In this document: positions 3,965 through 25,834 of the stretch, in pieces | How positions within the stretch are numbered: position 1 is the stretch's first letter | Layout of the letters: every line of letters begins with the position of its first letter | DNA from: an uncultured Erysipelotrichaceae bacterium | Lineage (GTDB): Bacteria; Bacillota_I; Bacilli_A; Erysipelotrichales; Erysipelotrichaceae | Length of the DNA stretch: 32,000 bases | Reading direction: 5' to 3' | Assembly (NCBI GenBank): GCA_942492995.1 | Contig: OW818653.1 | Location: 1,140,001-1,172,000, forward strand | Program-made: the position numbers and the translations under genes | Notes under the pieces: generated by a model | Database searches by the model: none | What the model saw: the letters and a program-made list of their open reading frames with translations, nothing else | Told to the model about the DNA's origin: nothing

Positions 3965-4441
3965 ATGTTCAATCAAGCAATTCAATTAATTAAAACACGA
4001 AAATCATTAATGCAGATTATCCTGTTTTTTATTATATTTATGATTATTTACACATTCATTGATCGTAATAATATTAGCTATACAAAAATGTCACAAACTT
4101 ATGGTGATTATCTTGTATACTACAATATATCTCTCAATATTCTAATGTCTTTATTAAGCGCAATATTGTTAATTCTTAGTACCGCAATGGCAACTATTAA
4201 AGGTAAAGAATCAATCAGTTCTAATGTATCCTTCATCTCTGTATTCTTTGGAATACTAACCTATGGATGCACACCATGTGTCATAGCGTTTTTTGGGTCA
4301 ATTGGTATTGCGTTCTCTGTAGCGGTTCTACCTTTAGCTGGATTACCCTATAAAATTATTTCTCTAATTTTAATACTAATTGGATTGGTTTGGACGTATT
4401 ATGAAATAGAACATGGAAAGTGCAAGGTAAAGAAAATATGA
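3965..4441 (+). CDS. small 4-TM membrane protein with an intramembrane C-T-P-C motif (function unknown)
   Basis: There are four hydrophobic segments, and GCTPCV lies inside predicted TM3. The gene is divergent from the HxlR gene and overlaps the next gene by ATGA. Confidence 0.5.
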   Translation: MFNQAIQLIKTRKSLMQIILFFIIFMIIYTFIDRNNISYTKMSQTYGDYLVYYNISLNILMSLLSAILLILSTAMATIKGKESISSNVSFISVFFGILTYGCTPCVIAFFGSIGIAFSVAVLPLAGLPYKIISLILILIGLVWTYYEIEHGKCKVKKI

Positions 4442-4758
4442 AACTAATTCGCTTATTCGCATGGATTTCAAGTTTAGTAATGACTTTTATGATCATCTTC
4501 TCCTTATTAACCGGTAACTTCTTTGAACAAGGTTCTATATTAATGGGACTTGTTTGGGGACAAATGAGTTTAGTTGATTTATATGTTGGTTTCTTCTTGG
4601 TTTATCTTTGGATCTATTATAAAGAAACTCGATTTCTACCAAAAGTAATCTGGGCGATATTATTGATTGTGACAGGAAGCCTAGCAACCGCATTATATAT
4701 TCTTATTGAAAGTTATCGTGCGAAAACAATTGAAGAACTATTAACACAAAAAAAATAG
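4438..4758 (+). CDS. DUF1475-like small membrane protein
   Basis: I chose the start at ATG 4438 (MKLIRLF), which overlaps the upstream stop as ATGA. The pattern ...WGQMSLVDLYVGFFLVYLWIYYKE...GSLATALYIL resembles DUF1475 as I recall it. Confidence 0.5.
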   Translation: MKLIRLFAWISSLVMTFMIIFSLLTGNFFEQGSILMGLVWGQMSLVDLYVGFFLVYLWIYYKETRFLPKVIWAILLIVTGSLATALYILIESYRAKTIEELLTQKK

Positions 4759-4773
4759 GAGTGATCCTATTTT
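4752..4773. terminator. bidirectional terminator between convergent genes
   Basis: AAAATAGGA-gtga-TCCTATTTT forms a hairpin flanked by A and T runs. It overlaps the stop codons of both flanking genes: the TAG of the plus-strand gene (4756-4758) lies in the stem, and the first base of the DegV stop is 4773. Confidence 0.6.
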
Positions 4774-5600
4774 TAATTACCATCTTTTAATATGTATTGG
4801 ATAGCGACACATCCAGGACCACCTTGTGTGATCATTACTGGAGATAATTCTAATACATCGATTTCAATTCCTTGTATACGTTCTTTAATACGTTTGAATG
4901 CTAATTCCGCAACTTCGATATTAAACGCATGTGAGATATAAATCTTATGCGACATAGAAACACCATTTGCGATCATGCGTTCTATAATTTGATCTATAGC
5001 ACTTGTCCAAGTTCTTCCTGATCCAAACTTTTCTAATCTTTCACTACCTTCTACATGTATTACAATTGGTTTAAGTTTTAAGAATCCACCAAGTGTTGCG
5101 GCTAGAGTTGTAATTCTACCACCACGTTTTAAATAATCAAAATCTGTAGGCATTAGGAATGATTGACATGATGTTAGACATTTATTCATTCTTTCTAAAA
5201 TCTCTTCAACATTTTTATCTTTAGATAATGATGCGGCTAGTTCGACAAGATATTTCTGAGTACCAGCCAATGTCTTTGAATTAAAAAGTGTTATACCTTC
5301 AGTATGCATTGAATTTAAAATACCAAGCGCTGAATCATAAGTAGCACTAAGTCCTTTAGTCATCGTAATATGTAATGCATTTTTTGTTTTTTCGTATACT
5401 TCCATGACATCGCCAATAGCAGGTTGTGATGAATTAGGAATCGCATCTTTTACCATTTTGACAAAATCAGCTGATGCCAATTCAAAGTAGTCTCTATAAT
5501 TTTTACCGGATATTGCGACCTGCAAAGGTAATAGTTCTATATCTAATTCGCGAGCTTGGTCTTGACTCATTAAAGAGCCTGTGTCTGTGATTATTTTCAT
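4773..5600 (-). CDS. DegV family fatty-acid-binding protein
   Basis: MKIITDTGS....A.ELDIELLPLQV....Y.D and the 275-aa length are typical of DegV. An AGGAGA Shine-Dalgarno sequence lies upstream. Confidence 0.85.
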   Translation of the reverse strand: MKIITDTGSLMSQDQARELDIELLPLQVAISGKNYRDYFELASADFVKMVKDAIPNSSQPAIGDVMEVYEKTKNALHITMTKGLSATYDSALGILNSMHTEGITLFNSKTLAGTQKYLVELAASLSKDKNVEEILERMNKCLTSCQSFLMPTDFDYLKRGGRITTLAATLGGFLKLKPIVIHVEGSERLEKFGSGRTWTSAIDQIIERMIANGVSMSHKIYISHAFNIEVAELAFKRIKERIQGIEIDVLELSPVMITQGGPGCVAIQYILKDGN

Positions 5601-5682
5601 GATTTCTCCTATAAAAGTATTCTAACATAGTTCGGTCAAAATTGAATGAATTATCCACAATCTTTGGTATGATATACACAAG

Positions 5683-6300
5683 ATGAAAAGCACACATTTG
5701 GTTGAGTTAAGAAAATATGAATTAGTCGATGATTCGAGTCAAGAAATCATTTTTGGATTGAACCAAGAATGGTACAAATCAAAGTGGCAAAAAATGGCTG
5801 GATGTGGTCCAACCGCAGCGAGTAGTCTAATCTATTATCAATTGTCAAACGATATTACGCTTAATAAAGACTCCGCAATCCAATTAATGGAAGTATTATG
5901 GGAATATGTAACACCTGGAATGGGTGGAGTATATAAACGGTCTATGTTTACAGATGGATTAAAGCGGTATTTTGATAAAAATGAGATACAAGCAAAGATT
6001 GAATCAATCGAAATTACAAAAAATAAAAAGACTCGTATGAGTCTTAAAGATACAATCGATTTTTTAGAAAATGGATTAAGTAATAACTCACCCATCGCAT
6101 TTCTAAATCTAGATAATGGCGATGAAGAGAAACTAGATGAATGGCATTGGGTTGTGATAAGTGGAATTGATATTCATGAGGATCATAATCAAGTATTTAT
6201 AAACATTATCGATGATGGTAAGCTATTTGCGATCGACCTTGATTTATGGTTAAGAACAACTAAAAAAGGTGGCGCATTTGTTTACTTTACTATGATTTAA
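5683..6300 (+). CDS. predicted cytoplasmic papain-fold cysteine peptidase (C39-like domain)
   Basis: Candidate catalytic residues appear in C39-like order: Q-x4-C (WQKMAGCGPTAAS), then His (DEWHWVVISG), then Asp (INIIDDG). There is no signal peptide and no fused transporter. Confidence 0.45.
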   Translation: MKSTHLVELRKYELVDDSSQEIIFGLNQEWYKSKWQKMAGCGPTAASSLIYYQLSNDITLNKDSAIQLMEVLWEYVTPGMGGVYKRSMFTDGLKRYFDKNEIQAKIESIEITKNKKTRMSLKDTIDFLENGLSNNSPIAFLNLDNGDEEKLDEWHWVVISGIDIHEDHNQVFINIIDDGKLFAIDLDLWLRTTKKGGAFVYFTMI

Positions 6301-7351
6301 TTTTCTTAAGTAATAAATCTGAATCAAAGCTATGCAATAAGGCTTCATCTTGAGTGATGAGGTCTTTTTTTAATAGATCCAACAACATAGAATCCATACT
6401 AATCATTCCTTCAGAACTTGAAGATGCGATTGTGTTTTTTAATTGGTGTGTTTTAGCTTCACGTATTTGATTACGAACCGCTAGACTGTTGGTCATTACT
6501 TCAAAGACCGGTGCTAATTCACCATTCTTTAAGTGAATAAGTTGTTGAGATATTACTGCTTCAAGAACCATCGATAATTGAAGACGAATTTGTTGTTGCT
6601 GGGATGCTGGAAATACATCCACAATTCGATCAACCGTGTTAGCTGCTCCAAGCGTATGCAATGTCGAAAAGACGAGATGTCCAGTTTCCGCTGCTGTTAT
6701 CGCTAATGAGATTGTTTCTAAGTCACGCATTTCACTAATAAACAATACATTCGGTGCTTGTCTTAGTGCTGATTTAAGCGCTGAAGAACTTGAATCACAA
6801 TCACTTCCAACTTCTCTTTGTGTGACGATACTCTTCTGATGACGGTGAAGATATTCGATTGGATCTTCGATTGTCACAATATGACCTGAACGATTCTTAT
6901 TAATTAAATCTAGGATGACTGCTAAGGTTGATGATTTACCCGCACCTGCTGGGCCACTAATGATAACCAATCCTTTAGTAAGTTCAGAGAAACGTGTTAT
7001 TTCAGTAGGAATACCCAAATCATTCGCAGTAGGAATATCAAACTGTACAAGACGAATAACTGCCGCAAGTGAATTACGTTGATGATATACATTTACTCTT
7101 AATCGTGCTAAATGAGCTAAGGAAAATGAAAAATCATCATCTCCTTTTTGGTCTAAACGTTCCATATTACGATTACCAGCAAGTCGATATAGTTCATCCA
7201 CTACCATATGACAATGATCAGGACCTAACACTTCATTGTCTATACGTGAAACATTATTTTTTACTTTAAATGCGATGGGTGAACCAGCTACGAAAAATAT
7301 ATCAGACGCATCCAGTTCCACAGCTTTTCTAGCAATCTCTTGAATATTCAT
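6290..7351 (-). CDS. pilT: PilT-type (retraction-type) type IV pilus ATPase
   Basis: It is colinear with P. aeruginosa PilT: MNIQEIARKAVELDASDIFF, Walker A GPAGAGKSST, IEDPIE, ALRQAPNVLFISEMRD, His box TGHLVFSTLHT, and AVRNQIREAKTHQL (the AIRNLIRE motif). I set the start at ATG 7351, 5 nt after a GGAGG at 7361-7357. The upstream stop is at 7353-7355. Confidence 0.9.
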   Translation of the reverse strand: MNIQEIARKAVELDASDIFFVAGSPIAFKVKNNVSRIDNEVLGPDHCHMVVDELYRLAGNRNMERLDQKGDDDFSFSLAHLARLRVNVYHQRNSLAAVIRLVQFDIPTANDLGIPTEITRFSELTKGLVIISGPAGAGKSSTLAVILDLINKNRSGHIVTIEDPIEYLHRHQKSIVTQREVGSDCDSSSSALKSALRQAPNVLFISEMRDLETISLAITAAETGHLVFSTLHTLGAANTVDRIVDVFPASQQQQIRLQLSMVLEAVISQQLIHLKNGELAPVFEVMTNSLAVRNQIREAKTHQLKNTIASSSSEGMISMDSMLLDLLKKDLITQDEALLHSFDSDLLLKKIKS

Positions 7352-7352
7352 A

Positions 7353-7778
7353 CTATCCTCCATATACGGGATCACCGTCTTGTGTATAATCTTGGTTATT
7401 TCCAGAAGTTAATTTCCATTCAATTACTTCTAATTCTATCTTCTCATTATTGATAACTTTCAATACAACATTAAGACTTAAATTCTGACTTACTTTAGAA
7501 ACATGAATTATTTGTTTCTCACGATCATATTCCCAATCTTTTATATCATCGAATCCATTAACTTTCTGATTTAAACTATTTTCAATGTTTATGATTAGTA
7601 TATCCATATCCCTTTGAATTGTATAACTCTCAGTTAATAGAGTATTTCCACGTTCAATTGAATGTCTAATGTTTAATGTATTTAGATAACTTAACGTAGA
7701 AAAACTAATGATTAATACCACGATTAATACAGTAAATAATGTAGGAACACCAAACAACGTAATACTGTGTTTTTTCAT
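7353..7778 (-). CDS. small bitopic protein (141 aa), pilin/ComGG-like topology without a prepilin motif
   Basis: I set the start at ATG 7778 (MKKHSITLFGVPTLFTVLIVVLIISF), which is preceded by an AAGGTGG Shine-Dalgarno sequence. It has a short basic N-terminus and a single N-terminal hydrophobic helix followed by a soluble domain. It lacks Gly(-1) and Glu(+5). Confidence 0.6.
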   Translation of the reverse strand: MKKHSITLFGVPTLFTVLIVVLIISFSTLSYLNTLNIRHSIERGNTLLTESYTIQRDMDILIINIENSLNQKVNGFDDIKDWEYDREKQIIHVSKVSQNLSLNVVLKVINNEKIELEVIEWKLTSGNNQDYTQDGDPVYGG

Positions 7779-7780
7779 AC

Positions 7781-8158
7781 TTATTCTACCACCTTTACAA
7801 CATCCCAAGATAATAGTTTTTCACTGTTTAGTGTGAATAAATTTAAAGTATACACATCATATATCCCATTACTCGTCATCTTAATGTGCAGTTGATAATA
7901 ATCAATAGATTCTACTTTATTACCATTTGAATCGAAATTAAGTGTCCAATCATTTGTGTATATTTCTTTCGAATTCTTACTCTGAATATCCTCGGAAATC
8001 ATTACCATCGTTTCTGACATTTTCATCATTGCTTCATTTGACTGATGTTGAGTCATAGAACGTACAAAAATCATATTAGTGACACTTAAACTCACAAAAA
8101 GAATAAGTATACATAACACCATTTCCATCATAAAGAGTCGTTGTGAGTTTTTTTTCAT
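7781..8158 (-). CDS. small bitopic protein (125 aa) with a degenerate prepilin-like N-terminus
   Basis: The N-terminus MKKNSQR-LFMMEMVLCILILFVSL has a Glu at the fifth position after the basic stretch, as in class III signal peptides, but Arg stands where Gly(-1) is expected. It has an ATGA overlap with the upstream gene. Confidence 0.6.
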   Translation of the reverse strand: MKKNSQRLFMMEMVLCILILFVSLSVTNMIFVRSMTQHQSNEAMMKMSETMVMISEDIQSKNSKEIYTNDWTLNFDSNGNKVESIDYYQLHIKMTSNGIYDVYTLNLFTLNSEKLLSWDVVKVVE

Positions 8159-8601
8159 TGTGCGTCTCTTTTACTTCTTAACGTATAGTTTAGTTCAGTC
8201 GTATCATCCTTATCGTTTAGATATATAACTTGAACTCTATCATTAGATAAATTAAAACTTAGATTATTTAGTTTAGCTATTCTTTGACCGGAAGTTTCTA
8301 ATTTATAATCAACTTCTGAAACTTGTTCAACTAAGAAACCATCTTCTTCATAGATTAATGTAAAATACCCATCATGGTTTATTAAAATATAATCTTCATT
8401 GATTATCAACTTATCACTCGTATCAGACTGATTAAATCGATGATTAAAGTACAATAAAATCGTTCTTTGGTTCATTGATATCTCTGATTCAGTCGTCATA
8501 GATTGATAAAAGTTAGCCCCTAAATAGATGGTAAAAACCATGATAAAAACAAACCCACTTAATACAATCCATTGTAAGAATTGATTAGATATTCGTTTCA
8601 T
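8155..8601 (-). CDS. small bitopic protein (148 aa), unknown (pseudopilin- or PilN/O-like topology)
   Basis: MKRISNQFLQWIVLSGFVFIMVFTIYL forms an N-terminal anchor followed by a soluble domain. It has ATGA overlaps with the neighbouring genes at both ends. Confidence 0.55.
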   Translation of the reverse strand: MKRISNQFLQWIVLSGFVFIMVFTIYLGANFYQSMTTESEISMNQRTILLYFNHRFNQSDTSDKLIINEDYILINHDGYFTLIYEEDGFLVEQVSEVDYKLETSGQRIAKLNNLSFNLSNDRVQVIYLNDKDDTTELNYTLRSKRDAQ

Positions 8602-8894
8602 TGGTTTAATCCTTTTCTAAATACAGTCACATCAGGTCTAATATTGGACGCAAAGCTCTTAAAACTTATGTAGTATAGTCTTTCATCTATGATTAATCCG
8701 TAATTATCAATTAGATAATCAATTTTAGCAGGATAGAATCCTTCTTGTGCATAACAAAGATTCAGAGATCGTTGAATCGCTGACTCTACTTGTTCTATTT
8801 GATATTGTGTATTCGTTTGTTGGATTAGATTCGCCAATGGAATACTTAATATCAATAGAGATAGTGTTACACCAATAAAGATTAACTTTTTCAT
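8598..8894 (-). CDS. small bitopic protein (98 aa), unknown
   Basis: MKKLIFIGVTLSLLILSIPL forms an N-terminal hydrophobic helix. Its ATG directly abuts the TAA stop of the GspF-like gene (TAAATG). Confidence 0.55.
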   Translation of the reverse strand: MKKLIFIGVTLSLLILSIPLANLIQQTNTQYQIEQVESAIQRSLNLCYAQEGFYPAKIDYLIDNYGLIIDERLYYISFKSFASNIRPDVTVFRKGLNQ

Positions 8895-9920
8895 TTAAAA
8901 CCCAAGTGTTTGCATCGCTTGTAATAATGGAACAAGCAATGATAGTAAAACAGACCCAACTCCTAATGCTAGAATAACTAAAATGATTGGTTCTATGCGA
9001 TTAAACGCTTTCTCTAAAACACGATCAGATTCAATCTGTGTTGTTTCACTAACTCTTTTCAATGTATTCTCTAAATTACCTGATTTATACGCTAAGCGTA
9101 TTGTATTCTGTGTAAAAGCTGGATAGATATCCGTCTTTAATATTAAGTCGATAATCGTTTCTTGATCACCTAATTGTACAGATTTTAATTTTCGATAAAG
9201 CTCTCTTTTTGGTAGATAATCAAATATTAAGTCGAGAGCAGAATGGTTATTAACGCCCGACTCTACCATTAATTCAACAAGATACGAGAAATAAGCTAAA
9301 TCAGTTTTATATAAACTTTTTGGTATTAGATTTAACACATGATCAATAACATCATTTGATTCTGGATGATTGTACTTATGAATTGTAATATAGATAGCCC
9401 AAAGTACAAAGATAACAATGAATATAATTCCGATGCTTGAGATGACATTAATACCATTCAATAAAATATTTATCCAAACTGGATACGAACCACCTAAGTT
9501 GATAAATATAGATTGGAAGATTGGTAGCACAACAAAGCTTAGTACATTTAATACAATAATCAATATCGTAAATAATACGAAAGGTAAATAAAGTAAATCC
9601 ATTAATTCTTTACGATAATTTGCTTTACGTTGATAAAATATCGCTAAATGCTTAAGAATTGATTCTTGTTTCCCTATCTCACTTGCAACATCCATGCTTG
9701 AAATTAATAGTTTATCGAACTGTTCTGTTCTTCTGATAGATTCTTCAAAACTATTACTTTCACGATAATATGAAAGAATCAGTTTATAATCGATTTCTGA
9801 GTGCTGTTCTGATAGTAAAATCAATCCATCCTCAAGTGGTAAGCCATTCTCAAAAATCATGGCACATTGCGTACAAAATACACTGTGAATATTATCATCA
9901 TACATTCTTAATTTTGCCAT
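8895..9920 (-). CDS. GspF/PilC/ComGB-like type II secretion system F-family platform protein
   Basis: The 341-aa protein has two cytoplasmic helical T2SSF-like halves (F..L..M.E.G..L..AL..) separated by TM segments, plus a C-terminal TM ending in ...LLVPLLQAMQTLGF. An AAAGGGG Shine-Dalgarno sequence lies upstream. Confidence 0.75.
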   Translation of the reverse strand: MAKLRMYDDNIHSVFCTQCAMIFENGLPLEDGLILLSEQHSEIDYKLILSYYRESNSFEESIRRTEQFDKLLISSMDVASEIGKQESILKHLAIFYQRKANYRKELMDLLYLPFVLFTILIIVLNVLSFVVLPIFQSIFINLGGSYPVWINILLNGINVISSIGIIFIVIFVLWAIYITIHKYNHPESNDVIDHVLNLIPKSLYKTDLAYFSYLVELMVESGVNNHSALDLIFDYLPKRELYRKLKSVQLGDQETIIDLILKTDIYPAFTQNTIRLAYKSGNLENTLKRVSETTQIESDRVLEKAFNRIEPIILVILALGVGSVLLSLLVPLLQAMQTLGF

Positions 9921-9932
9921 AGTGTTACCCCT

Positions 9933-10862
9933 TTAATAATAATCCTGTTCTTGATATTCACCATTATATGAACCCATAGAATCAAATGTCGGGTCTACTC
10001 TCTTCCAAACCTCTGCTTCAAAATAAATACTGGGATTAATCCAACCAATATCTTTAATATATACATCAACCCACGCATGATATCCTTGTTCAACATAGCC
10101 TGTCACAACTCGTGTTGGAATGTGTTGGACTCTTAACATCGCAGTCATAAGTGAAGCGTAATCAAAACAAATTCCTTTCTCTATTAAATATGTTTCATCA
10201 ATTATTGGTAATATAAACTTCGTCTGAGCGACCTCAGCTTTGTCATAATCATACTCGATATTATTAATAATATACTGATAAACTTCATATACTCTTTCTA
10301 TTTCACTATCCGCATCAACGGTTAATTCAAATGATTTCATAATCGCTTTTGTCTCTTTATTGTAATCCACAATTTGATTGGGATAGAGATACGATGACGT
10401 TTCATCAATTAATGTGACATCTATTTTAGTTGATGCACTTACAACATAAGAACTTCCTTCTTTATTCTTTAACAATCGTATCGAATACACTCCATCACCC
10501 ATTTGCATCGGTATAATTACATACTGATTTGGGACAAGAGAATACGTATAAACAGTATCATTCATAGAAACTTGTGCTTTAAGATCTACATTGCTATCTG
10601 GCGCAAGTATACTAATATAACCAAATTCCGCATTCGAATAATCGATTTCATACCCATTAGATTCAAATACTAATTTACCAGGTTGTGTTGGCCATAGAAT
10701 CTCTTCAAAGGTATATTTCTTAGAACTCTCACCAACTGATGGATACTTTTCAAATACATTTAGATTTTGCGCTTGGCATCCAGATAAAAACAATAGAAGC
10801 ACAATTAATACGCACCTTATCTTAATTGTAAAAGTATGTTTGAGATTGTTTGAGATTGTCAT
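9933..10862 (-). CDS. transglutaminase-like (papain-fold Cys-His-Asp) lipoprotein
   Basis: It has a lipobox, LLFLSG-C (Cys29). The C-terminal core carries Cys (KGICFDYASLMTAMLR), His (GYHAWVDVY) and Asp (KRVDPT) in transglutaminase-core order. No Shine-Dalgarno sequence precedes the ATG. Confidence 0.75.
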   Translation of the reverse strand: MTISNNLKHTFTIKIRCVLIVLLLFLSGCQAQNLNVFEKYPSVGESSKKYTFEEILWPTQPGKLVFESNGYEIDYSNAEFGYISILAPDSNVDLKAQVSMNDTVYTYSLVPNQYVIIPMQMGDGVYSIRLLKNKEGSSYVVSASTKIDVTLIDETSSYLYPNQIVDYNKETKAIMKSFELTVDADSEIERVYEVYQYIINNIEYDYDKAEVAQTKFILPIIDETYLIEKGICFDYASLMTAMLRVQHIPTRVVTGYVEQGYHAWVDVYIKDIGWINPSIYFEAEVWKRVDPTFDSMGSYNGEYQEQDYY

Positions 10863-10878
10863 TTTATTACTTTATTTC

Positions 10879-10887
10879 ATTATAGCA
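10879..10887 (-). promoter_or_regulatory. candidate extended -10 promoter (TGCTATAAT) for the transglutaminase-to-pilT cluster
   Basis: On the minus strand, TGCTATAATGA lies immediately after the terminator of the giant gene and 16 nt before ATG 10862. An identical TGCTATAATGA follows the terminator at 15956-15992. Confidence 0.35.
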
Positions 10888-10889
10888 TA

Positions 10890-10920
10890 ACAATAAAAAA
10901 AGAAGCCCGGAGGCTTCTTC
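10890..10920 (-). terminator. intrinsic terminator directly after the giant adhesin gene
   Basis: On the minus strand, GAAGAAGCC-tccg-GGCTTCTTT forms a GC-rich 9-bp stem followed by TTTTTTATT. It starts right after the TAA stop. Confidence 0.8.
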
Positions 10921-13900
10921 TTATAATCTAATTAATGTTTCGAATGAATCATCGATACCTTCAGGTATTGTTGCTGAATGAATAACTTTACCATTTAATT
11001 GGAAGTTAACAGTAACGCCACCACAATGTTTCGCTAAACGTTTGAAGAATTCGATTTCGATTGTTTGAACTTCAACTAAGTCTTTATCACTTAATTCCAC
11101 AACCATTGTCTTTTCATCTGGTTTAGCTAAACGTCTACGAACTACTTTCTGATTATTTGCTTTATCTGTTAAGATGTATTTCATATTAGGTCTTAAGAAC
11201 GCTAGTAACCATAATAGTAATCCAGCAAGTAGAGCTAGTAACCACCATAACCAGTCGTTATTCACGGCTGCTAGAGGTGTTTCAGGTTCTACAATAATAA
11301 TTTCTTCTGTTACATCTATTGTGATTTCTCCAATATTTGAATCATCTGTTCCATCATTTGCGATGAAAGTGAAACTATCTGTACCTTCGAATCCATCATT
11401 TGGAGTATATGTAAATGTTCCATCAGGATTGAATACGATTGTGCCATTTGTAGGATCAGTCACTAAACTAAATGTTAATGCGTCTCCATCTGGATCTGTA
11501 CCAGTTGCAGCACCATCGACAGGTTCTTCAAATGGAGTAGATAATGTATCATCTACAACAACTGGAGCACCATTAGGAGCTGGTGGAGGAGGAAGTGTTG
11601 TTACAGTAATTGTTACTGTAGCATTCGAAGTGTGAACACCGTCGAATACTTCAAATAAGAAACTATCACTGGTAGTAGCACCACCATTATGCGTATAACT
11701 AAATGTACCATCTACGTTTACAACTACACTACCGTTTGCTGTACCTGATAATAAACTAAAGCTTAATGGAGCTCCTTCAGGATCACTACCAGTTAATGTT
11801 CCACCCACAGTTCCACCTGTTAATACAGTTAGAGCTTGAGCAAATGCGACTGGAGGAAGATTGACTACTGGAGCCGCCAATACAGTTACAGTAACTGTTG
11901 CGGTAGAAGTTAGTTGACCATCTGTAACACTGAATACGAATGTATCGCTAAGTGTAGCAGAACCGTTATGTGTATACGTATATTCGCCTGTTGGGCTAAC
12001 AGTTGCTGTACCGTTAGTTGCAGGAGTTAATAAACTAAATACTAATGTATCTGCAGGAACATCCAAATCACTAGCAGTAACTAAACCATTACTTGAACCA
12101 GCATTCGGAACGATGAAGGCTAATGGATTTGCAACAGGAGGATCATTTACAGGTGTAACATCTATTACAACTGTAACGACATTCGAGTCTAGTAATCCGT
12201 CAGATACAAGGTAATCAAAGGAATCTAAACCAACATAGTTTTCATTTGGTGTGTAGGTAAACGAACCATCCACATTGAATAATAATGAACCAAATAACGT
12301 ACTTGTTTGAATACTTGGAGTTAATGAATCACCATCAACATCAGAATCATTTATCAAGACACCAGGAGCAGCGATAACTAATGCTGTATCTTCAGGTGTA
12401 TCATAATTGTCACCTACAGCAACTGGAGCATCATTAATTGGGTTAACTGTAATTGTTACAGTAGCGTAAGCTCTTAACTTACCATCACTAACGCCAAACA
12501 TGAAGCTATCTGGACCATGATAATCAGCATCTGGTGTATATGTACGACTTGCGCCAGTACCACTTAATGTTCCATGTAATGGAGCTTCAGTAATACCATA
12601 AATCAACGAATCGCCATCAACATCACTAGCTACAAAGTTAATTAATATTGGAGTATCTTCATCTGTAATAACTTCATCATCTTCAGCTACTGGACGATCA
12701 TTTAACGGAGTAACATCGATTGTGATTGTAGCAGATGCACGATAGAAGCCATCACTTAATGCGAATGTAAAGCTATCAGGACCAGTATAATTCAAGTCCG
12801 GAGTATATGTACGATTTGCACCAGTTCCAGTTAATACACCGTGTGCAGGACCTGTTAAGATACCAAACACTAATGTACTACCTTCAGTATCACTACCTGT
12901 TAAAGTAATAGGAAGTGGTGTTTCTTCTGGAGTTGTCAAATCTTGAGGATCAGCGATAGGACGATCATTAACAGCAGTAACAGTAATTGTTACAACTGCA
13001 GTATCAGTTTTTTCGCCATCACTCACTTCAAATGTAAAGCTATCAGGACCAAAGTAATTTGCGTCTGGAGTATATGTACGGTTTTCACCAGTACCACTTA
13101 ATACACCATGTAATGGACCTGTTTCAATATCGAATGTTAATGTTGTGCCTTCTGGATCACTACCCGTTAATGTAATTGGTAATGGAATATCTTCAGGCGT
13201 ATTTAGAGTTTGAGGATCTGCATCAGGAGCGTCATTGAAATCTAACACTGTAATTGAAACTGTTGCAGGAGCACTAAATGTTACACCACCATCATCACTG
13301 ACTCTGAATGTAAAGCTATCTGAACTTGTTTCACTTCCATCATGTACGTATTCAAATACGCCTAATCCATTTAAATCAATTGTTCCATTTGCTGGAGAAC
13401 CAACTAATTCGAATGTTAATGCATCGCCATCATCATCTTGACCTGTTACTGATCCATTGTATGTTCCACCTTCAAGTACATCGAAAGCTTTTGGATTAGC
13501 GACAGGATTATCTTCTTCTGAAGTAATATTTAATGTGACTAATGCGGTAGCAGTTCCACCATTTCCATCGGTTATACGATAGACAAATGAATCTGTACCA
13601 TGGAAATTAGCATATGGAGTATATGTGAACGAGCCGTCTGGATTTAAAACTAAGACTCCATTAACTGGTTCTGATCCAATTACTAATGAAACACTTAAGC
13701 CATTATTTTCAACATCTGAATCATTAGATTTAACACCAGGTGCTGCAACAACTAATTGAATATCTTCAGTTGTAGTATATTCATCTGGATTTGCGATTGG
13801 TAAATCGTTTATTGGATTTACTGTTACAAATACTGTAGCAATACTTCCACCATTAATTGTATATGTAAACTGATCTGGTCCAAAGTAATCAGCAGTTGGA

Positions 13901-15423
13901 GTGTACTTAATTGTACCATCAAGATTTAAAACTGCTGTTCCATGAGCTGGAGAACCAACTAATGTAACCATTAAAGGACCGCTATCGATATCTGTATCAT
14001 TCGCTATTACATTAATGTCAATTTCAACATCTTCATCAGTAGTAGCAACATCATTTACTGCAACTGGAGCATCATCGATTGGATTAACAGTTACGGTAAC
14101 TGTAGCAACACTTCCACCATTCAATGTATATGTGAATGTGTCAACTCCAACGAAGTTTGCGTTTGGTGTGTACTTGATTGTACCATTAGGGTTTTCAACT
14201 GCTGTTCCATTAGATGGAGAAGTAACACTTGTAACTTCTTTTAAACCTGCATCGATATCTGTATCATTTAATAATACGTCGATATCAATAGCAACTTCTT
14301 CATCAGTTGAAGTAACATCATCTACAGCAACTGGTAAATCATCTAAATTTGCTACATTTATTGTAATTGTTGCATATGCAGAATTTGCATATCCATCATT
14401 TACTCTAAATGTGAATGAATCTGAACCAAAGAAATTTAAATTAGGTGTATACGTCAAATTAGGTAACGTTCCACTTAGCACACCATTTGCTGGTGTACCA
14501 ACATCGACAAAGCTAATAACTTGCGAAACATCCGCATCAGATCCAGTTAAAGTAATTCCAATTGGAACTTCTTCATTTGTATTTAATGTTTGAGGATCCG
14601 CAACTGGAATAGCATTTATTGTATTAACTAAAACAGCTGCACTTGACGTTAATATTGTTCCACCTGATGTTGTACCTGTAGCTGTATTATTTACAGTGAC
14701 AGGATCCATAGATGACTGATCAATATTATGAACATAAGTGTAAATTGCTGGAAGTGTAAATACACGTGGACTTGATAGATCCATTGGATCAGTTACTGTC
14801 AAAGTACCATCTGCATTTATAACATCTGGATTCTTAACATTTATTGCTGGAGTTAAAATACTTAATCCAGTATTTGTAAGATCTGTTTCACCAAATATTT
14901 GAATTGTAATCTTGAATGGTGAAATTGTTTCTAAAACTGCTTCATTGATTGTAAACGATGTTGTATAGGTTTCAGTAATTGTTTGATCCGCAACATCAGT
15001 AAAAGTATCAATAACAGCTTCCGAATAGATTGGACTTCCACTTGGATGAGCAATTAGTGATCTAACACTAAAGTCAGCAGGTGTTGTTCCAGTTAATTCA
15101 TACGTAACTGTGTACGTCAAACTAAATGTAATGTCTGTAGTTTGAGATACATCGACCGTATAAGTTACATTCTCATTTCCATCGACTGCTAAATTAAGTA
15201 CTGGTTTATCAACTGTTTTGATTATACCCCAGTATGTGTTAGCAATAACACTACCCGTAACATCTGGTTTGTTTACACCAACTGCTAATGATGTAGGTGT
15301 TAATACTGTTGGTAAGACACCTCCATCGCCTGGTTTAGCATAAACGTTTAAAAATGGCGTTCGATCGACAAGTAATAGAGCTATTATCAATATTCTCGTC
15401 AATCGGTTGAGTAAGTTCTTCAT
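10921..15423 (-). CDS. giant (1500 aa) surface repeat protein/adhesin: signal peptide, N-terminal beta-rich region, 12 cadherin-like (tandem-95/VCBS-type) repeats, C-terminal TM anchor, cytoplasmic tail
   Basis: A GGGAGG Shine-Dalgarno sequence at 15436-15431 precedes the start. The Sec signal is MKNLLNRLTRILIIALLLV...VYA/KPG. The repeats carry the motifs [AL]PVA.D, D.D.D/DGD and G.F.YTP...F.G.DSF.Y...D. The TM helix is WLWWLLALLAGLLLWLLAFL. There is no LPXTG. Confidence 0.9.
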   Translation of the reverse strand: MKNLLNRLTRILIIALLLVDRTPFLNVYAKPGDGGVLPTVLTPTSLAVGVNKPDVTGSVIANTYWGIIKTVDKPVLNLAVDGNENVTYTVDVSQTTDITFSLTYTVTYELTGTTPADFSVRSLIAHPSGSPIYSEAVIDTFTDVADQTITETYTTSFTINEAVLETISPFKITIQIFGETDLTNTGLSILTPAINVKNPDVINADGTLTVTDPMDLSSPRVFTLPAIYTYVHNIDQSSMDPVTVNNTATGTTSGGTILTSSAAVLVNTINAIPVADPQTLNTNEEVPIGITLTGSDADVSQVISFVDVGTPANGVLSGTLPNLTYTPNLNFFGSDSFTFRVNDGYANSAYATITINVANLDDLPVAVDDVTSTDEEVAIDIDVLLNDTDIDAGLKEVTSVTSPSNGTAVENPNGTIKYTPNANFVGVDTFTYTLNGGSVATVTVTVNPIDDAPVAVNDVATTDEDVEIDINVIANDTDIDSGPLMVTLVGSPAHGTAVLNLDGTIKYTPTADYFGPDQFTYTINGGSIATVFVTVNPINDLPIANPDEYTTTEDIQLVVAAPGVKSNDSDVENNGLSVSLVIGSEPVNGVLVLNPDGSFTYTPYANFHGTDSFVYRITDGNGGTATALVTLNITSEEDNPVANPKAFDVLEGGTYNGSVTGQDDDGDALTFELVGSPANGTIDLNGLGVFEYVHDGSETSSDSFTFRVSDDGGVTFSAPATVSITVLDFNDAPDADPQTLNTPEDIPLPITLTGSDPEGTTLTFDIETGPLHGVLSGTGENRTYTPDANYFGPDSFTFEVSDGEKTDTAVVTITVTAVNDRPIADPQDLTTPEETPLPITLTGSDTEGSTLVFGILTGPAHGVLTGTGANRTYTPDLNYTGPDSFTFALSDGFYRASATITIDVTPLNDRPVAEDDEVITDEDTPILINFVASDVDGDSLIYGITEAPLHGTLSGTGASRTYTPDADYHGPDSFMFGVSDGKLRAYATVTITVNPINDAPVAVGDNYDTPEDTALVIAAPGVLINDSDVDGDSLTPSIQTSTLFGSLLFNVDGSFTYTPNENYVGLDSFDYLVSDGLLDSNVVTVVIDVTPVNDPPVANPLAFIVPNAGSSNGLVTASDLDVPADTLVFSLLTPATNGTATVSPTGEYTYTHNGSATLSDTFVFSVTDGQLTSTATVTVTVLAAPVVNLPPVAFAQALTVLTGGTVGGTLTGSDPEGAPLSFSLLSGTANGSVVVNVDGTFSYTHNGGATTSDSFLFEVFDGVHTSNATVTITVTTLPPPPAPNGAPVVVDDTLSTPFEEPVDGAATGTDPDGDALTFSLVTDPTNGTIVFNPDGTFTYTPNDGFEGTDSFTFIANDGTDDSNIGEITIDVTEEIIIVEPETPLAAVNNDWLWWLLALLAGLLLWLLAFLRPNMKYILTDKANNQKVVRRRLAKPDEKTMVVELSDKDLVEVQTIEIEFFKRLAKHCGGVTVNFQLNGKVIHSATIPEGIDDSFETLIRL
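11308..14610 (-). repeat. 12 tandem coding repeats of 87-98 codons (~260-295 bp period) inside the giant gene
   Basis: In the translation, repeat starts fall at aa 272, 363, 452, 541, 639, 732, 821, 910, 999, 1095, 1189 and 1286, and the array ends near aa 1372. Recurrent DNA strings such as GGACCA(A/G)..TAAT..GC.TCTGGAGTATATGTACG are visible in several units. Confidence 0.85.
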
Positions 15424-15443: not shown

Positions 15444-15547
15444 AAAAAACCGGTCTAATGCATAGTGCAATTGACCGGTCATGATATCTCGAGGATACTT
15501 TAGACGTCGAACTTTGTGTCCCAAGCTTTCACCTGGTTTACCTTTTT
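15444..15547 (-). promoter_or_regulatory. c-di-GMP-I (GEMM-I)-like riboswitch, copy 1 (gene-proximal), with intrinsic terminator
   Basis: The minus strand reads AGGTAAAC-CAGGT-GAAA-GCTTG-GGACACAAAG-TTCGACGTCTAAAG-...-CATGACCGGTCAATTGCA-cta-TGCATTAGACCGG-TTTTTT. The core is colinear with the Vc2 aptamer core. The terminator U-tract ends 8 nt before the Shine-Dalgarno sequence. Confidence 0.75.
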
Positions 15548-15590
15548 ACTAAGATTAAATTTTTATAAGTCTACGGATGTCCAAGATACG

Positions 15591-15695
15591 AAAAACCGGA
15601 CAACCGCATTAGTTTGCAGTTGACCGGTCATGATATCTTTTGATATTTTAGACGTCGAACTTTGTGCCCTAAACTTTCGTTTAGTTTACCCATAA
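15591..15695 (-). promoter_or_regulatory. c-di-GMP-I (GEMM-I)-like riboswitch, copy 2 (distal), with intrinsic terminator
   Basis: The minus strand reads GGGTAAAC-TAAAC-GAAA-GTTTA-GGGCACAAAG-TTCGACGTCTAAAA-...-CATGACCGGTCAACTGCA-aactaa-TGCGGTTGTCCGG-TTTTT. The unpaired core is the same as in copy 1, and the stems differ from copy 1 by compensatory changes. Confidence 0.75.
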
Positions 15696-15778
15696 AAACA
15701 TATGTAATAATAAATAATGATAAAACAGATTTAATTAATAATTATTATCAATATTATTACCCGTTTTATTGTAAACAT

Positions 15779-21807: not shown

Positions 21808-22791
21808 ATGGATTACTCACACTTTACTAAAGAAACGCTTATACTACGAATCAAACAGCTTGAAAGATTAAACTTTGAGTTATTAAAGGAAAATGATGAT
21901 GACTTATCGTATGCTTGGACAGGTAGTCTTGGTAAATGGTATCTAGATTTTTCATCTGGATACGCTGTATTTAATGCACAAAAAGTACTCGCATTAGGTT
22001 ACACTATGGACGAAATTCCTCATCCTACACCTTACACTTTTTTCACTTCCTTAATTCATCCAGATGATTATGATAAAACAATGAAAAGCATGTTAGATAA
22101 TATGCACAATATATCCCCAGTTTACGAAATTGAATATCGCATTCGCGGAAAAGATGGAACCTATAAGTGGTTTTATGATCGAGGTCGTGTTACTCAACGT
22201 GATGAAGAAGGACATGCGACATTTGCGGCAGGAATCGTATTTGATATTACTAATAAAAAGGAAGATGAATTACGATTGTTGAAAGAAAGCCAGGACTTCA
22301 AACGAAGTTCATTGACCGATCCTTTAACAAATATTATGAATCGACGCGCTATTTTAGATGAGTTATCCAAACGTATGAATAAACATATTTATAATTTTGA
22401 ACATCTATCCATCTTAATGTTGGATATCGATGATTTTAAATTTATTAACGATCAATATGGTCATATAAAAGGTGATGAAGTACTCGTAAAAGTCACCCAA
22501 ATAATTATTGAAGTAATTCGTGGAATTGATACCGTTGGGCGCTATGGTGGTGAAGAGTTCTTAGTTATATTTCCGAACACTGACTTACAAAACGCACATA
22601 ATGCGAGTGAACGTATTAGGATGAAAATTGAGAATACAGAGTTTGCTGGAATCGGTAAAATCACTGTTAGTGGTGGTTATACTGAGTATATAAATGAGTC
22701 GATTGAAGAATTAATTGATATCGCCGACCAAAACTTATATCAAGCAAAAAGAACTGGTAAAAATAAAGTAATAGGTAATTTTCTTAAGTGA
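21808..22791 (+). CDS. PAS-GGDEF diguanylate cyclase (intact GGEEF active site and RxxD I-site)
   Basis: It has a coiled N-terminus and a PAS/PAC domain (YRIRGKDGTYKWFYDRG....G...AAGIVFDIT). The GGDEF domain reads DPLTNIMNRR...DIDDFKFINDQYGH..GD. The I-site RGID lies 5 residues before GGEEF. There are no TM segments. Confidence 0.9.
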   Translation: MDYSHFTKETLILRIKQLERLNFELLKENDDDLSYAWTGSLGKWYLDFSSGYAVFNAQKVLALGYTMDEIPHPTPYTFFTSLIHPDDYDKTMKSMLDNMHNISPVYEIEYRIRGKDGTYKWFYDRGRVTQRDEEGHATFAAGIVFDITNKKEDELRLLKESQDFKRSSLTDPLTNIMNRRAILDELSKRMNKHIYNFEHLSILMLDIDDFKFINDQYGHIKGDEVLVKVTQIIIEVIRGIDTVGRYGGEEFLVIFPNTDLQNAHNASERIRMKIENTEFAGIGKITVSGGYTEYINESIEELIDIADQNLYQAKRTGKNKVIGNFLK

Positions 22792-25054: not shown

Positions 25055-25834
25055 TTATGGTTGCATTGCTCCAAATAGTACGAGCCACGCTAATATAGAT
25101 TTAGCAGCTAAACTTAAGATAATATAAACTCTTTCACCATATAAATAATCTTTCCATTTGCCAACTTTAAGGTACTGAAGAATCATATTAATTGGGAACG
25201 TATTGAATGCGACGAAATATGAAACAATAATTGCCCAAACAAACCAAGGTACCATATCAAAGTTACCAGTTCCGGTCATGTAAAACAGAATTGCAGCCCA
25301 AGGTGCGATACCAGCAATTGATCCCCAAATAAATGGTAACCAATTAATCTTACCTTTTTCAGCACTAGAATTTAAGAGTTCCATATCCAAACCAAATAGA
25401 TTCATTGATGCATTAACTACGAATATTAACAACAAGGATACAACATCATAGATACCGAATAAAGTCGCAATAAGTACAATCATAATGGATGAACTTAATG
25501 CATACTCATACCAACGATATGGATTAATTCCCTTACGTAAGTTCGCTTCATATTTTTTCGAATTTAACGCAATAAATCCATGTGCTAACGCAGAAATAAA
25601 TAAGAATGATGCGACAAGTAATCCAAACGGTAAATCAAATAATTCTTTACTAACTACTTCAAGAGATCGTGTTTCAACATTGAATTGTTGATAGAATTGA
25701 ATAATTGTTGGTTGAAATTCCGAGATTTTTTGAATTACTGTTGTTGCCAAAAATACCATTGCGACTGCTTGTATAAAATGAATCCCACCCATGATAAGAT
25801 TAAAATTCTTTAATTTTTTAAATACATCCTGCAT
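25055..25834 (-). CDS. heliorhodopsin (7-TM retinal protein, inverted topology family)
   Basis: It is colinear with heliorhodopsin 48C12 as I recall it: NFN.I.G..H..Q (His23 equivalent), SALAHG (His80 equivalent), RWYEYALSSSIMIVLIA (counterion Glu), VNASMNLFG, GIAPW, and GERVYIILSLAAKSILAW with the Schiff-base Lys (K245, codon 25100-25102). Confidence 0.85.
   Translation of the reverse strand: MQDVFKKLKNFNLIMGGIHFIQAVAMVFLATTVIQKISEFQPTIIQFYQQFNVETRSLEVVSKELFDLPFGLLVASFLFISALAHGFIALNSKKYEANLRKGINPYRWYEYALSSSIMIVLIATLFGIYDVVSLLLIFVVNASMNLFGLDMELLNSSAEKGKINWLPFIWGSIAGIAPWAAILFYMTGTGNFDMVPWFVWAIIVSYFVAFNTFPINMILQYLKVGKWKDYLYGERVYIILSLAAKSILAWLVLFGAMQP

Follow-up and report, generated by a model that had tools for sequence, protein, structure and literature searches.

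How a type IV filament machine might work with PilT as its only motor is the question raised by a seven-gene cassette of an uncultured Erysipelotrichaceae bacterium (contig OW818653.1), located at positions 6290-10862, minus strand, of a 32-kb window, which is the whole stretch of DNA that was analysed. Machines of the type IV filament (T4F) superfamily follow two working rules: assembly is driven by a motor of the PilB/GspE class, and the subunits are cleaved by a prepilin peptidase after a glycine at position -1, known as Gly(-1). The cassette encodes a transglutaminase-like lipoprotein (TG), a platform protein (F), four small proteins (s1 to s4) and a PilT-family ATPase (T), in the order TG-F-s1-s2-s3-s4-T. 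Each of these parts can be placed in a known superfamily (PilT, GspF/PilC, pilin-like and transglutaminase-like), and what is new in the literature searched, where no description of the cassette was found, is their combination: a PilT-clade ATPase as sole dedicated motor, a platform of its own, four subunits with degenerate signals, an obligatory TG, and an order that is kept in hundreds of lineages. The answer proposed here, held with moderate confidence, is that the cassette is a self-contained and uncharacterised branch of the T4F superfamily, mostly from monoderm Bacillota, with a PilT-clade ATPase as its one dedicated motor.

The first step towards this answer is the identity of the motor. 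T (353 amino acids, 6290-7351, minus strand, with its ATG at 7351) is a hexameric ATPase of the type described by the PilT/PilU model TIGR01420, which scores 395.1 bits against a cut-off of 319.1 over residues 11-349 of the 361-residue open reading frame (ORF). The models for PilB, GspE and ComGA give only 106-125 bits; those of PilB and GspE cover just the core (residues 119-254), and that of ComGA, at 125 bits, stays below its cut-off of 300. Comparison with the PDB gives the same picture, where PilT entries match over their full length with 265-293 bits (293 for both 2gsz and 2ewv), and PilB and GspE entries reach about 75 bits over the nucleotide-binding core only. The translation shows a Walker A motif (GPAGAGKSS), the His box TGHLVFSTLHT and an AIRNLIRE-type motif (AVRNQIRE), and it has no PilB-type N-terminal extension. 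T is accordingly assigned by sequence to the PilT family, and not to the PilB-, GspE- or ComGA-like ATPases. The model score, the structural matches and the motifs all agree with the initial annotation of this DNA, which had called a PilT-like ATPase of about 353 amino acids without a PilB/GspE extension.

The same annotation had proposed a platform of 341 amino acids and of GspF/ComGB size, and this is borne out by the two T2SSF repeats (PF00482, 77 bits) found in F (8895-9920, minus strand). F aligns over its full length to the GspF, HofC, PilC and ComGB models, with scores far under all equivalog cut-offs (99.6 against 424 bits for GspF, 88 against 700 for PilC, and 80.6 against 240 for ComGB). 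GspF is the best-scoring of these models, and F falls into none of the subfamilies.

The seven genes are co-directional and closely packed. The largest intergenic gap, of 12 nucleotides, lies between the stop of TG (309 amino acids, 9933-10862) and the ATG of F at 9920. At the next junction, the TAA of F (8897-8895) abuts the ATG of s1 (8894-8892). The genes for s1 (98 amino acids, 8598-8894) and s2 (148 amino acids, 8155-8601) share an ATGA overlap at 8601-8598, and those for s2 and s3 (125 amino acids, 7781-8158) share another at 8158-8155. Finally, the TAG of s4 (141 amino acids, 7353-7778, with its ATG at 7778) ends at 7353; a single base separates it from the ATPase ATG (7351-7349), which is preceded by GGAGGA at 7361-7356. 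All ORFs, and the overlaps, the abutment and the one-base spacer described before, were found again at the same positions, with gaps of 12 nucleotides or less throughout. Read in this way, the junctions indicate that the seven genes of the cassette are translationally coupled.

Whether this block is kept in relatives, a question put by the initial annotation, was addressed by searching one genome of each GTDB species with s1. The search yielded 60 loci (cited below by L numbers). The complete TG-F-s1-s2-s3-s4-T order is found in 47 of the 60; in seven others the block runs off a contig end, and in three TG is relocated behind T. From the side of the motor, ATPase homologs with 54-87% identity were traced to six contigs, one of them from the cultured Hungatella effluvii, and all six contain the same seven-gene block ending in T. 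Since all seven ATPase homologs of at least 54% identity whose context was read are cassette-bound, T can be argued to be a dedicated motor rather than a shared one. The cassette is a real conserved unit. Its s1 family alone holds 1,291 representatives at 50% clustering in a profile search among 1.84 billion proteins. Orthologs of s1, s3 and s4 that have a source name are all called "hypothetical protein", and those of s2 either "hypothetical" or "DUF4860 domain-containing".

The hosts are mainly Bacillota, namely Erysipelotrichaceae, Lachnospiraceae (including Anaerostipes, Agathobacter and Fusicatenibacter), Oscillospiraceae, Peptococcaceae and Ruminiclostridium, together with metagenome-assembled genomes (MAGs) from other Clostridia/Eubacteriales and bins labelled just as Bacillota or bacterium. 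Cultured carriers include Hungatella effluvii, Anaerostipes amylophilus and Lachnospiraceae bacterium 29-84. Complete cassettes are also present in two MAGs of Coriobacteriales (Actinomycetota) and one of the diderm Synergistaceae (L055, L060 and L063), a placement that could stem from horizontal transfer from Bacillota or from faulty binning. In L060 and L063 a large hybrid histidine kinase is encoded directly upstream of the cassette. L012 (around 8500-10000) has s1-s4 and T, and neither TG nor F was detected upstream, while the sister locus L015 has both; a disruption, masked sequence or faulty assembly could account for this. For the generic type IV filament model of Denise et al., a major pilin that can be recognised is mandatory (PMC6668835). 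Because the pilin profiles used in the present analysis, which are other than those of that model, do not detect the subunits of the cassette, the model may have overlooked it.

The four small proteins, all bitopic, are the part on which the comparison with filaments turns. They were studied through alignments of 45-60 orthologs each (with residues counted over 61 sequences for s3, 58 for s4 and 62 for s2) and, for s1 and s2, through predicted structures. None of the four is recognised by a pilin hidden Markov model (HMM) above its cut-off in scans with the Pfam and NCBIfam models, including N_methyl/IV_pilin_GFxxxE. The only pilin models matched by s3 are ComGC and ComGF, below threshold (E about 0.01; 15.9 bits against a cut-off of 75 for ComGC), and the same NCBIfam models do recognise true ComG pilins at L027.

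The protein s3 has a short basic leader followed by a hydrophobic helix, and a glutamate five residues past the pilin Gly(-1) position, Glu(+5), is invariant (61/61). The -1 residue itself is a glycine in only 4 of the 61 orthologs, and is otherwise arginine (as in the window), asparagine, tyrosine, histidine, serine or others; one Oscillospiraceae ortholog reads SRSG/LFLLELMIV, a textbook class III signal. When the s3 profile is compared with the PDB, type IV pilins make up five of the top seven matches, including the top three (PilA4, PilA, PilE1, PilA and MshA, E = 0.04-2), and both printed alignments, to PilA, fall on the N-terminal helix with the conserved glutamate aligned. The protein s4 shows the opposite arrangement. 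A glycine just ahead of its transmembrane helix is invariant (58/58) in the atypical context LFG/VPTL (FG/LPTL), the +5 residue is always hydrophobic and never glutamate, and a DGDPVYGG motif is conserved at the C terminus. This pattern, in which the glycine is kept without Glu(+5), is that of GspK/ComGG-type subunits.

The alignments of s1 show neither Gly(-1) nor Glu(+5), and those of s2 no Gly(-1) site, with an aspartate at a position comparable to Glu(+5) in 16 of 62 s2 orthologs. The most conserved small subunit is s1, marked by the motif CYAxEGxYPA. Its AlphaFold2 model (predicted local distance difference test, pLDDT, 91) has a pilin-style lollipop shape, with helices at 2-51 and 58-65 and two strands. 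The top Foldseek matches of this model are small type IV pilins, at non-significant values (E > 1), and the best match of the s1 sequence profile in the PDB is TcpA, likewise non-significant (E = 0.12). The protein s2 belongs to the Pfam family DUF4860 (PF16152, E = 4.6e-7). Its model, built from an alignment of 71 sequences (pLDDT 88), consists of an N-terminal helix of 58 residues (2-59) and eight strands, a fold like that of the minor pseudopilin GspJ: the sole full-length Foldseek matches with high probability (0.93-0.99) are EpsJ, GspJ and XcpW, with template-modelling (TM) scores of 0.42-0.56 and E about 0.2. Sequence-profile searches of the PDB with s2 and s4 returned only noise, and profile-profile comparison among the four proteins matched their transmembrane helices alone.

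As the two models combine a long N-terminal helix with a beta domain, s1 and s2 are read as pilin- or pseudopilin-like in architecture, a reading that the models suggest with weak statistics. Alignment proteins of the PilN/O or GspL/M kind were considered for s1 and s2 and rejected, given a single helix of 50-58 residues with a beta domain, and Foldseek matches of pilin or GspJ type. The topology first suggested for the small proteins, pilin/pseudopilin or PilN/O, therefore survives in its first half, by the fold comparison of s1 (non-significant matches) and s2 (E about 0.2), and not in its second. Likewise, the earlier statement that none of the four has a class III signal is right for s1, for s2 and for s3, with its Glu(+5) and Arg(-1), and overlooked the invariant glycine of s4. 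By the strict criteria of Gly(-1) and a pilin HMM, s1-s4 are not pilins, and they are proposed here to work like pilins. Gly(-1) is required for cleavage by prepilin peptidases, and it is lost in 93% of the s3 orthologs (57/61), so maturation by a PilD-type enzyme is probably not used for these small subunits.

Degenerate class III signals, and small proteins that fail all pilin HMMs, could also be expected from a functionless, decaying remnant of a Com or T4a pilus operon. Such an origin is highly improbable, and effectively refuted by the conservation data. The seven ORFs are intact and their junctions coupled, order and content are conserved across families, and the s1 family counts over 1,000 divergent members; the s3 glutamate, the s4 glycine, the cysteine, histidine and aspartate of TG, and the ATPase motifs are all retained.

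The first gene of the cassette encodes TG, which carries a lipobox (LSGC) and a Transglut_core domain (PF01841, 77 bits against a cut-off of 23), with further matches to PF04473 (DUF553) and Transglut_core3. Among solved structures, the putative transglutaminase-like cysteine protease 3isr is its nearest relative. The triad formed by C232, H262 and D290 is invariant in 36 orthologs, which argues that the enzyme is under selection, and TG is predicted to be a catalytically intact extracytoplasmic enzyme, either a protease or a cross-linker. With such an enzyme as an obligatory component, the cassette might not make a filament at all. PilT and the platform would then work on uncleaved pilin-like proteins that form a static scaffold and, together with TG, would process, cross-link or release surface proteins, such as adhesins anchored by a transmembrane helix or by sortase, or would open the peptidoglycan. 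Leaders that appear uncleavable by PilD-type enzymes and the intact catalytic triad fit this explanation, as do the genes for adhesins, sortases and cyclic di-GMP (c-di-GMP) enzymes that recur nearby.

A partial parallel is offered by the transglutaminase-like protease LapG, which sets a giant adhesin free in a manner controlled by c-di-GMP. As in the LapG/LapA system, the window brings together c-di-GMP control, a cysteine enzyme of transglutaminase fold and a giant repeat adhesin. However, TG belongs to Transglut_core/DUF553 and not to the BTLCP family of LapG (PF06035), which is not among its Pfam matches; no LapD-like gene is present in the window, where a riboswitch acts on the adhesin mRNA instead; and TG travels with the cassette even without an adjacent adhesin, many loci having none nearby. 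An explanation without a filament also leaves aside the invariance of the s3 Glu(+5), a residue associated with the packing of pilins on one another or with their extraction, and the pilin-type architecture of s1 and s2 in a gene order like that of gspF-G-H-I-J-K, both of which point to a fibre. It is regarded as unlikely.

The ORFs scanned in the 32-kb window include no PilB, PilD, PilM, PilN/O or canonical major pilin, as the initial annotation had already stated for the extension ATPase, the prepilin peptidase, PilM and a canonical pilin. The families listed for 166 flanking proteins include neither Peptidase_A24 nor PilM or PilN, and those listed for the flanks of about 40 non-redundant loci contain no PilB, PilM/N/O, PilD or major pilin. 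PilB, PilD and PilM were not detected within 10 kb at any locus except L027. When the profile of the cassette ATPase was run against all ORFs of the loci, a second ATPase of the T2SSE type appeared at L027 only. In this locus, from an uncultured Erysipelotrichaceae MAG, a complete, canonical comG operon (ComGA, ComGB, ComGC, ComGD and ComGF by NCBIfam) occupies 4322-7745, directly upstream of TG. As both are present side by side, the cassette is separate from the Com system; their adjacency may be a coincidence, a functional coupling or the trace of a duplication.

The operon at L027 also speaks for reading the cassette as an accessory module, with an alternative platform, minor-pilin-like primers and PilT as a retraction motor, which would take ComGA or PilB, a peptidase and a major pilin from elsewhere and make, for example, a Com or T4a pilus retractable or specialised. 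In this role PilT would keep its canonical function, and s1-s4 do resemble minor subunits, s2 being GspJ-like, more than an abundant major pilin. The invariant glycine of s4 could be a peptidase site, and a few s3 orthologs have a canonical G/LFLLE site. Different T4F systems are known to use some components in common, prepilin peptidases among them (PMC6668835). Against such dependence stand the platform that the cassette brings with it, the absence of Gly(-1) in 57 of 61 s3 orthologs, the lack of detectable PilB, PilD and PilM within 10 kb outside L027, and the restriction of all context-read ATPase homologs to cassettes, as expected of a dedicated motor. The accessory module is left as the main rival, possible but rather improbable.

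Among the known systems, the Com pseudopilus (comGA-GG with comC) shares with the cassette its monoderm Bacillota hosts, a compact single operon, and a platform of about 340 amino acids followed by a first subunit of 98 and several subunits of 120-150 amino acids. Both lack PilM/N/O and a secretin, and the product is in both cases probably a short wall-spanning fibre. The cassette differs from Com in its PilT-clade motor, which is encoded last and not first, in having four small subunits instead of the five of ComGC-GG, and in TG as its integral first gene; moreover, none of its subunits passes the ComGC, ComGD, ComGE or ComGF model, and Gly(-1) is mostly absent from them.

The pseudopilus of the type II secretion system (T2SS; GspE-F-G-H-I-J-K) offers a second comparison, with a platform followed by successive pseudopilins, an s2 model best matched by GspJ, EpsJ and XcpW, GspF as best model for F, one subunit with Glu5 (s3, as in GspI) and one without it (s4, as in GspK). 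Unlike the T2SS, the cassette occurs in monoderm hosts, has a PilT-type motor and a degenerate leader site, and contains no GspE, GspC/L/M, secretin or GspO.

With type IVa pilus (T4aP) systems that use PilT, the cassette has in common a bona fide PilT-family ATPase, with the AIRNLIRE-type motif and the His box, and a PilC-like platform. In those pili PilT is accessory to PilB and dispensable for assembly (PMC6916266), whereas in the cassette locus PilB, PilM/N/O, PilD and a major pilin are missing, and PilT is in an operon with its own platform and subunits. Functional precedents come from Tad and MSHA pili. In Tad pili one ATPase (CpaF) drives both directions (PMC11300603), and PilT promotes the extension of MSHA pili (PMC9815625). 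The Tad system, though, differs from the cassette in its CpaF/TadA-clade ATPase, TadB/C platforms, Flp pilins and TadV peptidase, and the MSHA system keeps MshE, an extension ATPase of its own.

If the cassette is a self-contained machine, the hexamer of T would dock on its own platform F and drive the insertion of s1-s4, their extraction, or both, giving rise to a short wall-crossing pseudopilus or tip complex. By analogy with the gspF-G-H-I-J-K and comGB-GC...GG orders, s1 would be the main subunit, s2 a GspJ-like subunit, s3 the Glu5-bearing one and s4 a GspK/ComGG-like one. TG would act outside the cell on the wall, the subunits or surface proteins, and the whole would probably serve surface attachment or adhesin handling under regulation linked to c-di-GMP.

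Several points weigh against this self-contained machine. PilT is canonically a motor for retraction and disassembly, and pilins that keep their leader are not known to polymerise. A Com system, presumably with a ComC-type peptidase, coexists with the cassette in at least one host (L027), and the negative results cover the window and the flanks, so that PilB or ComGA and a prepilin peptidase may act in trans. The pilin likeness of s1 and s3 is weak (E = 0.04-0.12 for PDB profiles, Foldseek E > 1), the Foldseek match of s2 has an E of about 0.2 despite a TM score of about 0.5, and fold models support s1 and s2 alone among the four small proteins. The flanking genes that point to surface attachment and c-di-GMP signalling are counted as raw recurrence. 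Of the two readings first offered for this locus, the streamlined T4F derivative is nevertheless favoured, by the conserved block, the platform of its own, the loss of Gly(-1) and the pilin-like subunits; the borrowing of PilB, PilD and pilins encoded elsewhere is retained as the lesser possibility. A stronger version of the favoured reading is put forward only tentatively and is rather doubtful. It holds that the cassette is a widespread, autonomous filament machine of monoderm bacteria, free of any need for a PilB/GspE-type ATPase or prepilin peptidase, in which the PilT-clade motor on its dedicated platform both assembles and retracts a short fibre of leader-bearing or otherwise-matured subunits, and TG couples this fibre to the wall or to adhesins.

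The link to adhesins was suggested by the gene that precedes the cassette in the window. It encodes an adhesin of 1500 amino acids (10921-15423, minus strand) of the tandem-95/Big_9/cadherin-like type, with 12 repeats each of Big_9, Cadherin_4 and Cadherin_5 and a match to the NCBIfam tandem-95 model. The protein has a signal peptide, ends in a transmembrane helix and not in LPXTG, and carries a conserved C-terminal tail of about 95 amino acids without a Pfam match (10921-11220), which the topology would place in the cytoplasm. This tail is well conserved in adhesins encoded upstream of cassettes (123-287 bits) and weakly in those encoded downstream (21-27 bits). Two c-di-GMP-I riboswitch aptamers (RF01051, gathering threshold 35 bits), arranged in tandem at 15612-15700 (63.2 bits) and 15463-15552 (61.5 bits) on the minus strand, precede the adhesin and not the cassette. 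Tandem riboswitches are found only where the adhesin is upstream, that is, in the window, L004, L007 and L015. A PAS-GGDEF diguanylate cyclase encoded on the plus strand at 21808-22791, about 6 kb from the riboswitches, is a possible local source of the c-di-GMP ligand.

Between the adhesin gene and TG lie two minus-strand elements that the initial annotation did not have: the strong intrinsic terminator of the adhesin transcript at 10897-10922 (AAGAAGAAGCCtccgGGCTTCTTTTT, then a T-run) and, at 10879-10887, an extended -10 element (TGCTATAAT) read from the sequence as the putative promoter of the cassette. An equivalent hairpin followed by TG(C/T)TATAAT precedes TG in L003, L004 and L015. Because this module of terminator and promoter is conserved, the cassette is most likely a separate transcription unit with its own predicted promoter. 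Control of the cassette by the riboswitches is disfavoured, since the terminator and the promoter intervene and relatives without an upstream adhesin have no riboswitch.

Counting the window, 14 loci of the Erysipelotrichaceae type have the tandem-95 adhesin beside the cassette, seven of them upstream and seven at a distance of about 1.8 kb downstream, and it was not found in the flanks of the other Erysipelotrichaceae loci or of any Clostridia-type locus. The adhesin-cassette link is lineage-specific. The earlier idea that the cassette serves the adjacent giant adhesin thus keeps its footing in the 14 flanked loci, and loses it in the Clostridia-type loci and at the intervening terminator and promoter. 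Other surface proteins are encoded in Clostridia-type flanks, including a giant Cna_B/FctA/SpaA protein directly upstream (L064), a 12-repeat SpaA protein (L061), a VWA protein plus a GBS104-type tip pilin (L036), and an ice-binding-like adhesin (L059). Sortases are present in the cassette flanks at three loci, GGDEF or HD-GYP proteins at a minimum of seven loci (L004, L044 and four downstream neighbours among them), and regulators of the BTAD/Trans_reg_C type recur, with twelve BTAD matches.

The same IS3-type element, with HTH_28 and rve ORFs, abuts the cassette upstream at L001 (5185-6434), on the side where the window has the adhesin, and downstream at L004 (11090-12336); its different sides suggest that mobile elements reshuffle the neighbourhood of the cassette. 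At the other end of the cassette, the window encodes on the plus strand (5683-6300) a protein of 205 amino acids with a weak match to Peptidase_C39_2 (E = 0.002) and a papain-like CGPTA...HW signature. This C39-like gene is convergent with the ATPase gene, overlaps its 3' end by 11 nucleotides, and has counterparts in the same place in no relatives but the closest (L001, L007, L009, L012 and L015). The protein was considered as a cytoplasmic leader peptidase and rejected, as it is present only in those relatives.

Further away, two overlapping plus-strand ORFs at 3965-4441 (158 amino acids, no family) and 4420-4758 (112 amino acids, the C-terminal part of DUF1475) look like a conserved two-gene arrangement and not a frameshift, because L001 keeps the split. 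A heliorhodopsin gene (PF18761, E = 1.5e-93) is present on the minus strand at 25055-25834 of this Erysipelotrichaceae-like, low-GC genome; together with the names of several related MAGs, which indicate freshwater or groundwater, it makes a light-sensing lifestyle possible.

If true, a machine with a PilT-class motor alone and subunits lacking the glycine would test both working rules of T4F. It would also assign a function to DUF4860 and to three unannotated families, among which the s1 family alone has about 1,300 members. The cultured carriers make experiments feasible. The hosts include abundant gut Lachnospiraceae and Oscillospiraceae as well as freshwater Erysipelotrichaceae, and the recurrent adhesins, sortases and c-di-GMP enzymes suggest that the cassette may be a new player in the attachment of commensal Gram-positive bacteria.

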